A stretch of 64,000 nt of DNA from Escherichia coli (GTDB lineage Bacteria > Pseudomonadota > Gammaproteobacteria > Enterobacterales > Enterobacteriaceae). How positions within the stretch are numbered: position 1 is the first letter of the stretch; each line of letters opens with the position of its first letter. Positions 15,830 through 37,727 of this stretch are shown here, piece by piece. The notes under the pieces were generated by a model, which saw nothing but the letters and a program-made list of their open reading frames with translations, did no database searches and was not told the DNA's origin. The stretch is taken from NCBI RefSeq assembly GCF_003334335.1, contig NZ_QOWQ01000012.1; one strand, given 5' to 3'. Made by a program: the position numbers and the translations under genes.

Positions 15830-15864
15830 CGCCGGATAAGACGCGGCAGGCGTCGCATCCGGCA
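15830..15864. repeat. REP palindromic unit
   Basis: gccggataagacgcggcaggcgtcgcatccggc matches the REP consensus. Confidence 0.75.
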
Positions 15865-15882
15865 TTAAAGGAAAATCAGCAA

Positions 15883-16794
15883 TTAACGTTGTGCTTCGCC
15901 ACCTAATCCTTCAATCAGGTTTTGAATTAACGCTGCCAGTTCACCAGTCATCAGGATGAAATCGGCATCAAAACGCTGGGCGAAATCTTCACGGTCGATA
16001 TCTTCGTTTTGATCGCGCAGCTCGTCGCAGAACTTCAGACGCTTGAGCGAACCATCGTCGCACATCACAAACTGAATGCGCTGCTGCCAGTCGAGCGCCA
16101 GTTTAGTCACCACTTTTCCGGCTTCAATGTGATTGGTGATCTCTTCGCTGGTCAGATCTTGTTTCTTCGCGCGGATCACGCCGCCATCTTCCAGCAACGA
16201 TTTCAGCTCGGCTTCATCAAGCAGCTGGAAGCCCTGTGCCGCACTACCGGAGCGAACCCATTCGGTCAGCGTCAGTTCAATCGGGTTTTCCATGCTCAAT
16301 GGTACAACCGGTAACGACCCCAGGCTTTTACGCAGTAATGCCAGCGTATCTTCCGCTTTTTTGGCACTGGCGCAGTCCACCATAATCAAACCGTTAACCG
16401 TGTCGATCCACATCATTGTCTGGCTAAAACGGCTGAAAGCACGCGGCAGCAGAGAGTGCAGCACTTCGTCTTTCAGCGAATCTTTTTCGGTTTTCTTCAG
16501 CTTACGCGCCTGTTCCGCTTCCAGTTTGGCGATTTTCGCTTCCAGCGCCTGTTTAATCACCGGAGACGGGAGGATTTTTTCTTCTTTGCGCGCGCAGATA
16601 ACAATTTGACCATTGGCAACGTGCGTTAACGCATCGCTGTGCGATCCCATCGGAGGAACCCAGCCCATCTTCGCCATGTCCTGGCTGCCGCATGGGGTAA
16701 ATGCCATCGAGGCTAGCTGTTTTTCCATCTCTTCTGCACGCAGCGAAATCTCGCGGCTAAGACGGTAAACCATTAAATTTTTGAACCACAGCAT
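15883..16794 (-). CDS. rdgC: recombination-associated protein RdgC
   Basis: Start at ATG 16794 ([16 protein letters not shown]...), 303 aa as recalled; the track ORF extends 24 codons upstream. Confidence 0.94.
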
Positions 16795-16918
16795 GATAAT
16801 TTCCACGGCCTTGTCGTTAAATTTAGCGGGCATGATAACGAATTGTCGGCGGCCTTGCATTGCCAATCCGGTTGTCCGTCTCTACGCTATTGATATTGAA
16901 AAAAATAAGGAGAGTACC

Positions 16919-17827
16919 GTGCGTATAGGTATCGATTTAGGCGGCACCAAAACTGAAGTGATTGCACTGGGCGATGCAGGGGAGCAGTTGTACCGCCATC
17001 GTCTGCCCACGCCGCGTGATGATTACCGGCAGACTATTGAAACGATCGCCACGTTGGTTGATATGGCGGAGCAGGCGACGGGGCAGCGCGGAACGGTAGG
17101 TATGGGCATTCCTGGCTCAATTTCGCCTTACACCGGTGTGGTGAAGAATGCCAATTCAACCTGGCTCAACGGTCAGCCATTCGATAAAGACTTAAGCGCG
17201 AGGTTGCAGCGGGAAGTGCGGCTGGCAAATGACGCTAACTGTCTGGCGGTTTCAGAAGCAGTAGATGGCGCGGCAGCGGGAGCGCAGACGGTATTTGCCG
17301 TGATTATCGGCACGGGATGCGGTGCGGGCGTGGCATTCAATGGGCGGGCGCATATCGGCGGCAATGGCACGGCAGGTGAGTGGGGACACAATCCGCTACC
17401 GTGGATGGACGAAGACGAACTGCGTTATCGCGAGGAAGTCCCTTGTTATTGCGGTAAACAAGGTTGTATTGAAACCTTTATTTCGGGCACGGGATTCGCG
17501 ATGGATTATCGTCGTTTGAGCGGACATGCGCTGAAAGGCAGTGAAATTATCCGCCTGGTTGAAGAAAGCGATCCGGTAGCGGAACTGGCATTGCGTCGCT
17601 ACGAGCTGCGGCTGGCAAAATCGCTGGCACATGTCGTGAATATTCTCGATCCGGATGTGATTGTCCTGGGGGGCGGGATGAGCAATGTAGACCGTTTATA
17701 TCAAACGGTTGGGCAGTTGATTAAACAATTTGTCTTCGGCGGCGAATGTGAAACGCCGGTGCGTAAGGCGAAGCACGGTGATTCCAGCGGCGTACGCGGC
17801 GCTGCGTGGTTATGGCCACAAGAGTAA
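16919..17827 (+). CDS. mak: fructokinase / manno(fructo)kinase, ROK family
   Basis: GTG start at 16919 preceded by aaggagag; [16 protein letters not shown]/sugar-kinase N-terminal motif and a CxCGxxGC zinc motif; 302 aa. Confidence 0.92.
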
Positions 17828-17850
17828 AAAACGTAGGCAATTGGCGCATC

Positions 17851-18045
17851 ATGCCTGATGCGACGCTTGCCGCGTCTTATCAGGCCTACAAAAGGTGCCA
17901 GAACCGTAGGCCGGATAAGGCGTTCACGCCGCATCCGGCAATAAGTGCTCCGATGCCTGATGCGACGCTTGCCGCGTCTTATCAGGCCTGCAAAATGTGC
18001 CAGAACCGCGTAGGGCGGATAAGGCGTTCACGCCGCATCCGGCAA
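17851..18045. repeat. BIME: two tandem ~102-bp units, each built from REP palindromes
   Basis: atgcctgatgcgacgcttgccgcgtcttatcaggcct...ggccggataaggcgttcacgccgcatccggcaataagt occurs twice (unit starts about 17851 and 17953) with a few substitutions. Confidence 0.85.
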
Positions 18046-37251: not shown

Positions 37252-37271
37252 TCAAGTTCCCGTTGATGTTG

Positions 37272-37304
37272 AAAATCCCGGTCAGAAGATCGGGATTTTT
37301 TTTG
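37272..37304 (+). terminator. intrinsic terminator after secF
   Basis: aaatcccg-(loop)-cgggattt hairpin followed by a run of 8 T. Confidence 0.8.
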
Positions 37305-37379
37305 ATGTATGGAGATTGCGAAAATCCCCGCATCTTGGGAAACTGCGCGTAACCCTACATTTCATCCAGGTAACTTTTC

Positions 37380-37727
37380 ATGGCTATCATCCCAAAAAAC
37401 TATGCGCGGTTAGAAAGCGGCTATCGCGAAAAAGCATTAAAAATCTATCCGTGGGTCTGCGGTCGCTGTTCCCGCGAGTTTGTTTATTCCAACCTGCGTG
37501 AACTTACCGTTCACCACATTGATCACGACCATACCAATAACCCGGAAGATGGCAGTAACTGGGAATTGTTGTGTCTCTATTGCCACGATCATGAGCATTC
37601 GAAATATACCGAAGCGGATCAGTATGGTACGACCGTTATCGCAGGGGAAGATGCGCAGAAAGATGTCGGTGAAGCGAAGTACAACCCATTCGCTGACCTG
37701 AAAGCGATGATGAACAAGAAGAAGTGA
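37380..37727 (+). CDS. yajD: HNH nuclease family protein YajD (function unknown)
   Basis: 115-aa ORF with CGRC...HHIDHDH...N...LCLYCHDHEH, i.e. an HNH core with two Cys pairs. Confidence 0.9.
   Translation: MAIIPKNYARLESGYREKALKIYPWVCGRCSREFVYSNLRELTVHHIDHDHTNNPEDGSNWELLCLYCHDHEHSKYTEADQYGTTVIAGEDAQKDVGEAKYNPFADLKAMMNKKK

Follow-up and report, generated by a model that had tools for sequence, protein, structure and literature searches.

Among described proteins, the best Foldseek match in the PDB to the one considered here is Gmet_0936 of Geobacter metallireducens (Gme HNH, PDB 4H9D), a stand-alone protein of ~100 aa with a Cys4 zinc ribbon (ligands C38/C41/C73/C76) and mutated active-site residues D53/H54/N68/N77, which acts as a weak Mn-dependent nickase preferring DNA with apurinic/apyrimidinic sites (PMC3765158). 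Bacillus subtilis HlpB (YisB) is likewise a ~100-aa stand-alone HNH-like protein of the core genome, for which two reports cite a proposed DNA-repair role and describe a gene that adjoins addAB/sbcCD and is dispensable only if addAB is deleted (PMC3765158, PMC5714182). Here we analyze yajD, a gene of Escherichia coli with the RefSeq product name "HNH nuclease YajD", within a 64,000-nucleotide stretch of contig NZ_QOWQ01000012.1 (assembly GCF_003334335.1), hereafter the window. Both gene and family have been described and annotated before, such that the observation behind this analysis is real but not new.

YajD falls in neither the Gmet_0936 nor the HlpB family. The catalytic His, the Asn, the second CxxC and the metal ligand after it are spaced identically in Gmet_0936; however, the two proteins share only 18-20% identity, Gmet_0936 has D-H for the H-H of YajD and N77 for H69, and it is without the conserved C-terminal PFAxL peptide of YajD, its own C-terminus being disordered and unrelated. 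Unlike yisB, yajD has no repair genes as neighbors, and Salmonella remains viable without it (PMC3878590). Human ZRANB3 (PDB 5MKW), with an HNH domain followed by a C-terminal clamp-binding motif, recalls the architecture of YajD, but at 19% identity and as a single domain within a large SNF2 translocase of eukaryotes; furthermore, the YajD motif is neither an AlkB homologue 2 PCNA-interacting motif (APIM) nor a bacterial clamp-binding motif. DNases of the colicin E9/E7 type have the same five-residue pattern HH...N...H-x3-H, with H102, H103, N118, H127 and H131 of colicin E9 presumably the counterparts in our alignment, yet these toxins have no Cys4 zinc ribbon and YajD has no immunity gene, translocation domain or receptor domain. 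Finally, free-standing HNH endonucleases of phages reach ~50% identity over residues 27-85, but their HNH is C-terminal and follows an extra, unlike N-terminal region; they are without the N-terminal helix or tail of YajD and lie inside phage genes.

To the reading that YajD is a single-copy, housekeeping-type, stand-alone Zn-HNH (beta-beta-alpha-Me) nuclease tethered to a partner we would give roughly an even chance. In the proposed mechanism, the zinc ribbon (C27, C30, C65, C68) would hold the fold together, while H46 would serve as general base and H45, H69 and H73 would bind, in a colicin-like arrangement, one divalent metal ion that cuts the phosphodiester bond. The core of ~75 residues is without a nucleic-acid recognition domain, and specificity and activation would probably come from elsewhere, namely from a flexible acidic linker of ~30 residues and a conserved C-terminal helix, PFAxLxx[LM][LM], with basic residues; this tail would most likely dock the nuclease on a conserved cellular partner, which would bring YajD to its substrate. 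The gene would be expressed from its own upstream region, end at its own terminator and need no neighboring gene. From precedent in the family, the default substrate may tentatively be taken as DNA, perhaps nicked where damaged or branched. The parts of the protein on which this reading draws are as follows.

37380-37727, plus strand: yajD coding sequence, 115 aa, ATG start (open reading frame list, profile matches, identity to K-12)
37401-37445, plus strand: N-terminal helix, residues 8-22 (AlphaFold2 helix with block predicted local distance difference test scores, pLDDT, of 83-94; invariant columns)
37458-37604, plus strand: HNH catalytic core, residues 27-75 (Pfam match, invariant columns, AlphaFold2 model)
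37626-37673, plus strand: variable acidic linker, predicted disordered, residues 83-98 (pLDDT <50)
37674-37724, plus strand: C-terminal short motif A-K-Y-N-P-F-A-D-L-K-A-M-M and KKK tail, residues 99-115 (conservation, AlphaFold2 helix)

The active site carries the strongest part of the argument. Across an alignment of 23 family members, with identity down to 37%, the invariant residues comprise C27, C30, C65 and C68 as well as R32, L42, V44, H45, H46, N54, D57, G58, N60, W61, E62, L64, Y67, H69 and H73; within the N-terminal helix, Y8, E12, Y15, R16, A19, L20 and K21 are conserved. An earlier note on this DNA, made from the letters alone, had read the zinc ligands as CxxC/CxxH, which needs correcting to two CxxC pairs, C27/C30 and C65/C68. 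Its expectation that the catalytic His and Asn would persist on alignment was borne out (H45, H46, N60, H69, H73), whereas its HHIDHDH motif holds only in part: H45, H46 and H51 are conserved family-wide, where the consensus is HHKDHNH, while D48, H49 and D50 vary outside gammaproteobacteria. The residue spacing equals that of Gmet_0936, and H46 would therefore correspond to the general base and N60 to the structural Asn. The AlphaFold model (mean pLDDT 75.9; 89-94 for the core blocks) places these residues on a zinc knuckle, a strand at 42-46 ending in H45-H46, a second strand at 61-65 and a helix at 66-82. Together, alignment and model give good support to YajD as a predicted zinc-stabilized HNH nuclease with an intact active site.

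Selection on the gene is consistent with this picture. Over its first 85 codons, comparison to eleven further Enterobacterales gave nonsynonymous divergence (dN) of 0.01-0.06 against saturated synonymous divergence (dS), for a dN/dS of 0.001-0.018 (about 0.01), and the coding sequence is present as a single copy in 5425/5426 complete E. coli genomes. The very low ratio and the single copy argue for a functional core gene and not a cryptic relic, and the suggestion that YajD is a "cryptic" nuclease is thus one we would drop. The same conservation bears on the possibility that YajD is no nuclease in vivo, instead using the HNH fold as a binding module in a zinc-binding adaptor or regulator, as in Legionella DotN/IcmJ. 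A precedent exists in HlpB, which is reported to bind DNA without detectable cleavage (PMC3765158), and a yajD deletion has shown no phenotype (PMC3878590); however, none of the five catalytic or metal-binding residues varies across the family, which would be unexpected had catalysis been lost, and we see only the slimmest of chances for such a role.

Assignment to the family is straightforward. Residues 27-75 align to positions 1-47 of the 47-position Pfam HNH model PF01844 at E=1.5e-12, confirming the HNH core that had been noted, and the NCBIfam model NF008448, 'YajD family HNH nuclease', matches residues 2-113 of 113 at 210.3 bits against a cut-off of 87, which secures the name YajD together with identity to the K-12 locus. 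This family (NF008448 / PRK11295; 'Putative HNH nuclease YajD' in UniProt), matched at full length, is defined by sequence only; it holds 640 representative clusters at 50% identity, with namesakes in the AlphaFold database across Gammaproteobacteria plus Magnetococcus. The AlphaFold2 model has the fold of the HNH / His-Me finger superfamily, and HNH domains make up nearly all of its best structural matches.

Other families matched poorly or in part. The HlpB/YisB model (NF058586) scored 13.4 bits against a cut-off of 130, and no repair genes lie in the neighborhood within the window. T4 endonuclease VII (PF02945) shares the HNH core only, far below threshold; RNA-guided IscB/Cas9 matched in the HNH domain only (20.3 bits versus 175); and for ZorE of type II Zorya only model positions 213-269 of 282 align (E=4.4e-7), the neighbors here being secF and tsx. 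A free-standing homing endonuclease fits badly with a chromosomal intergenic site, a protein made up of nothing but core and tail, and the absence of any full-length phage match. Nor did we find the partner that a bacteriocin, toxin-immunity or toxin-antitoxin pair would need, given no adjacent partner open reading frame and no co-travelling gene in other genera, or the context of a restriction-modification or McrA-like system, given 115 aa without an extra domain, no methyltransferase nearby and similarity to McrA confined to the HNH domain. A sequence search of the PDB gave weak endonuclease VII matches plus matches to C2H2 zinc fingers that we judged spurious. Residues 24-49 (37449-37526) do mimic the C2H2 finger consensus, PWVCxxCxRxF...LxxHHxxH, and the family profile matches Sal-like 4 and ZBTB17 at E~3e-4; the likeness is attributed to chance because it requires a 2-residue gap and the actual zinc site is Cys4.

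Beyond the core lies the C-terminal tail. The linker varies in sequence but is constrained in length, with 26-37 residues (median 31) between core and motif, and the motif that follows reads [AS]-T-x-x-P-F-A-x-L-x-x-[LM]-[LM] family-wide, then basic residues. In sixteen gammaproteobacterial sequences, N102, P103, F104, A105 and L107 never vary; across the family, conservation is 90% or higher at F104 and L107. Among the 220 members having at least 25 residues past the core, 153 carry the motif, and many of the rest are recognizably frameshifted or chimeric; AlphaFold2 places a helix at residues 105-113. Because an invariant peptide sits on a flexible tether behind a core without a recognition domain, we read it as a docking motif, and the invariance of P-F-A-x-L argues for a specific protein interface over generic amphipathicity. 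With moderate confidence, then, the tail is a putative partner-docking amphipathic helix, and YajD may be targeted by a docking peptide as opposed to a fused recognition domain.

Several observations weigh against a partner-tethered nuclease and should be set beside this evidence. The C-terminal helix is predicted at moderate confidence only (pLDDT ~68), and the tail may instead fold back on the core, dimerize or bind membrane. As we understand the respective consensus sequences, its motif fits neither that of the bacterial beta-clamp (QL[SD]LF) nor the tail of single-stranded DNA-binding protein. A literature search returned no report of YajD nuclease activity, metal content, partner or phenotype; it gave no functional study and no relevant paper defining a substrate or function, in agreement with the earlier note on the substrate, and a search by yajD locus tags gave unrelated papers only. 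The functional data that the search did turn up come solely from Salmonella, where a yajD deletion behaves as wild type in growth and survival when stressed by temperature, pH, salt or H2O2, and is fully virulent in mice (PMC3878590). Moreover, the signal from gene neighborhoods points to arfB, and so to RNA or the ribosome, not to DNA repair genes.

That last point bears equally on whether YajD could be a self-sufficient DNA-repair or recombination nickase that, like Gmet_0936 or HlpB, needs no partner to work on DNA that is damaged or branched, the tail only modulating stability or DNA binding. HlpB offers a precedent for a ~100-aa stand-alone HNH-like repair protein (PMC3765158, PMC5714182), and the raised H2O2 sensitivity of Salmonella cbpA/yajD and ychN/yajD double mutants (PMC3878590) would be in keeping with a repair role. 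Both precedents are nonetheless distant by the identity and model scores given above, and no DNA-repair gene occupies any annotated or clustered yajD neighbor position, in contrast to yisB beside addAB/sbcCD (PMC5714182). A solitary nickase also leaves the conserved P-F-A-x-L peptide behind a disordered linker unexplained. We regard it as unlikely.

The arfB signal itself comes from outside the enterics. ArfB is an alternative ribosome-rescue peptidyl-tRNA hydrolase, and its gene (NF006718, 161-185 bits versus a cut-off of 100) is the immediate same-strand neighbor of yajD in at least four divergent non-enteric lineages and in both gene orders:

L083-85, same strand: yajD then arfB, then a NYN-domain gene, with a 4-nt overlap
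L105, same strand: yajD then arfB, with a 236-nt gap
L115, L130, L185 and L186, same strand: trxC, arfB, then yajD, with an 84-nt gap
L126, same strand: arfB then yajD, with a 60-nt gap

Across the linked lineages YajD proteins are 63-71% identical and ArfB proteins 48-60%. In the metagenome set of 80 loci, ranked by similarity to an arfB-linked member, the 123 usable neighbor slots would be expected to hold ~0.04 arfB adjacencies by chance, on the assumption of ~3000 genes per genome. Genes for NYN-domain proteins, predicted RNases, also recur near yajD (L083, L160 and one syntenic clade, L133/135/168/178), while four further distant members showed no additional arfB neighbor.

These neighborhoods suggest that YajD could be a translation quality-control nuclease acting on RNA at or near stalled ribosomes, for example making, by cutting or trimming mRNA, the truncated-mRNA ribosomes that ArfB rescues, with its helix docked on the ribosome or on a rescue factor. 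YajD would then be a candidate for an activity that cuts mRNA on stalled ribosomes in bacteria and for which, to our knowledge, no responsible protein has been named. A literature search found no ArfB-HNH connection. Set against this, arfB adjacency occurs in only ~5% of non-enteric loci and 0/80 gammaproteobacterial genome loci, and the ranking of the metagenome sample means that the cases may stem from one or two ancestral arrangements. Most other neighbors of yajD are unrelated metabolic genes, HNH enzymes are overwhelmingly DNases, and co-location with arfB is explicable by shared stress regulation, as trxC-arfB-yajD in L185 illustrates. A role on RNA or the ribosome is in our view a real but minority alternative; a quality-control nuclease of this general kind is quite improbable, and its most specific form, in which a YajD tethered to the ribosome or a rescue factor through the PFAxL helix cuts mRNA on stalled ribosomes to yield ArfB substrates, has a very slim chance of being correct.

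The trxC arrangement is also of note in its own right. In an uncultured proteobacterium (L185/L186, 946-5396), the same-strand trxC-arfB-yajD cluster lies beside a divergent rapA. TrxC is induced by oxidative stress in E. coli. The neighborhood thereby recalls the sensitivity to H2O2 seen when Salmonella lacks yajD together with cbpA or ychN (PMC3878590).

Turning to the gene's genomic position, yajD is fixed in place among the E. coli strains compared, and it is solitary in E. coli, in 80 gammaproteobacterial loci and in most distant loci. The adjacency to secDF to which the earlier note had drawn attention is real in E. coli, but extends no further than Escherichia and a few closely related genera and carries no functional meaning. 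Within a sample of 42 Enterobacterales loci outside E. coli, with proteins 83-98% identical to YajD, the full secD-secF-yajD-tsx order appears only in Pseudocitrobacter and Kluyvera; E. albertii alone has tsx and yajI beside yajD, on a contig that stops just upstream. The remaining loci place the gene in at least 20 unrelated contexts, each conserved within its genus only, such as ydjL/yeaC-msrB-gapA in Citrobacter and the paa operon in Enterobacter asburiae, with further neighbors including nemA/speD, pilT/codA, a resistance-nodulation-division (RND) pump, ychF, cyaB and fadE/mtnK, and phoU in Shewanella. No gene co-travels with yajD across the Enterobacterales contexts, and the ~55 flanking proteins scanned against NCBIfam are mostly unrelated metabolic, transport or regulatory genes; a Pth query beside ychF-yajD in Rahnella gave no match and is given no weight. 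A complete Proteus mirabilis chromosome holds one copy, distant from secDF and tsx.

Most of these relocations are old, since synonymous divergence between genera is mostly near saturation. A few pairs are too similar for their taxonomy, Morganella and Dickeya among them: their yajD genes (L021 vs L013) differ at 18% of synonymous third positions, compared with 40-50% for most inter-genus pairs, which suggests a fairly recent transfer between families and some horizontal transfer overall. Plasmid copies exist as well. The gene is found on Pantoea megaplasmids, and a Vibrio-type yajD lies directly 3' of a qnr pentapeptide-repeat gene, next to ISCR1 and armA, on IncC multidrug-resistance plasmids of Proteus, with equal-scoring copies on plasmids of Providencia and Vibrio furnissii. 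The qnr-yajD linkage (L103, IncC plasmid pNDM_FZP3105, 4042-5312; L058, 6222-7309) occurs only in the chromosomal locus of one Vibrio species and in a plasmid fragment that stems from a locus of this kind, so that the IncC copy has the look of a passenger carried along when Vibrio DNA was captured. An integron cassette origin for the Vibrio copies was considered and set aside, no attC-like repeat arrays having been found.

As for phages, 50,697 records contain no full-length copy, the best match covering 63% of the protein at <60% identity, and the nearest viral families are free-standing HNH endonucleases, phrog_25862 (E=6e-12) and phrog_144. In Escherichia phage Av-05 (L102, 63-4919), the DNA polymerase gene is in three pieces, split by free-standing HNH genes, with a third HNH gene immediately 3'; among phage sequences, the YajD core finds its nearest relative in one of these Av-05 HNH genes.

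Given its variable location and phage-like core, yajD may well have arisen from the gene of a free-standing endonuclease. It may be asked, then, whether YajD is still a domesticated or semi-selfish descendant of a phage HNH homing endonuclease, a single-gene cassette with its own promoter that owes its conservation to transfer or defense. The many contexts, the promoter- or leader-like upstream motifs common to several genera, some synonymous distances too low for the taxa (Morganella-Dickeya, 0.18), the Pantoea and IncC plasmid copies and weak matches to the HNH domain of Zorya ZorE could all be read in this way, as could the Av-05 gene that splits a polymerase. On the other hand, the phage relatives differ at both ends of the protein, as set out above, and across 10 relocated Enterobacterales loci 0/20 annotated immediate neighbors encode an integrase or transposase. 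ZorAB and other defense partners are absent, and on IncC plasmids the gene merely rides along with a qnr/ISCR1 fragment. We therefore consider a still semi-selfish cassette highly improbable. Because it is single-copy, fixed in position within the species, saturated in dS between genera and under extreme purifying selection, the gene now appears to serve its host.

Returning to the E. coli locus, a window region of 751 bases around yajD is 100% identical to E. coli K-12, with the RefSeq order secF, yajD, tsx. The elements that flank the coding sequence are the following.

37271-37300, plus strand: intrinsic terminator of the yajC-secD-secF operon (13-pair hairpin then T-run; inverted repeat 37272-37283 / 37288-37299)
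37301-37379, plus strand: yajD upstream region, putative own promoter and leader (upstream alignment, 14 genera in differing contexts)
37743-37846, no strand assigned: two repetitive extragenic palindromic (REP) units in the yajD-tsx interval, resembling the pair of a bacterial interspersed mosaic element (BIME), at ~37743-37771 and 37810-37846
37871-37897, minus strand: tsx terminator hairpin, possibly bidirectional and serving the convergent yajD transcript (hairpin and inverted-repeat scan)

The earlier description of a gene flanked by terminators and REP elements, and without any partner of the toxin, immunity, restriction or homing kind, is thus accurate for E. coli; the neighbors are secF and tsx, with no methylase or mobile element as a companion. 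The secF terminator hairpin splits yajD from secF transcriptionally. Upstream of the start, CAGGT at 37367-37371 lies 9-13 nt 5' of the ATG and is invariant across the 14 genera, a spacing that is long for a Shine-Dalgarno element, and a TATATT or TATAGT box ~50 nt upstream is common to several genera despite their differing yajD locations (loci L002-L040). A consensus scan found no sigma-70 promoter in the E. coli upstream region; the leader is no more structured than shuffled controls (z=0.78), an Rfam scan of leader and flanks gave sub-threshold REP-related matches only and no regulatory RNA, and inspection by eye found no LexA box (CTG-N10-CAG) upstream of yajD. At the other end, in vitro work has validated a terminator 3' of yajD (PMC12207403), and a NusG-suppressed transcriptional pause has been mapped within the gene (PMC10268239).

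Between secF and tsx there is no other credible open reading frame; specifically, no non-overlapping frame of at least 40 aa is present except one inside the REPs. The REP core GCCGGATGCGGCG lies at 37828-37840 and has 8 copies in the window versus 0.49 expected, the pair gives weak Rfam matches to REP-derived naRNA4/ES036, and a 751-bp query containing the REPs finds 6-44 matches (median 17) per E. coli genome. The pair is strain-dependent in E. coli, with a yajD-tsx spacing of 38 or 177 nt (L092 and L095 compared with L093 and others). Further REP clusters occur in the window at 15851-18043, with a four-unit array at 17853-18043, and at 43895-43927.

Strains also differ on either side of the gene. 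In some E. coli, a parD/parE toxin-antitoxin pair lies between secF and yajD (L097, GCA_011807205.1, 2897-3413; ~37300-37380 in the window), marking the secF-yajD spacer as an insertion site. One E. coli assembly (L096, 6113-7321) has an IS605-family OrfB/TnpB gene with a Cas12f-like TNB domain 3' of tsx, the usual position of yajI.

Taken together, yajD is a conserved E. coli gene still without an assigned function, and one that offers several handles for its study: an intact, constrained active site, a conserved terminal peptide and, elsewhere, a recurrent arfB neighborhood. Our analysis contributes three leads, in the docking-like tail, the shifting genome position and the occasional arfB neighbor. 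If the tail does recruit the nuclease to the replisome, to recombination complexes or to the ribosome, YajD would represent a new housekeeping nuclease pathway across Gammaproteobacteria.

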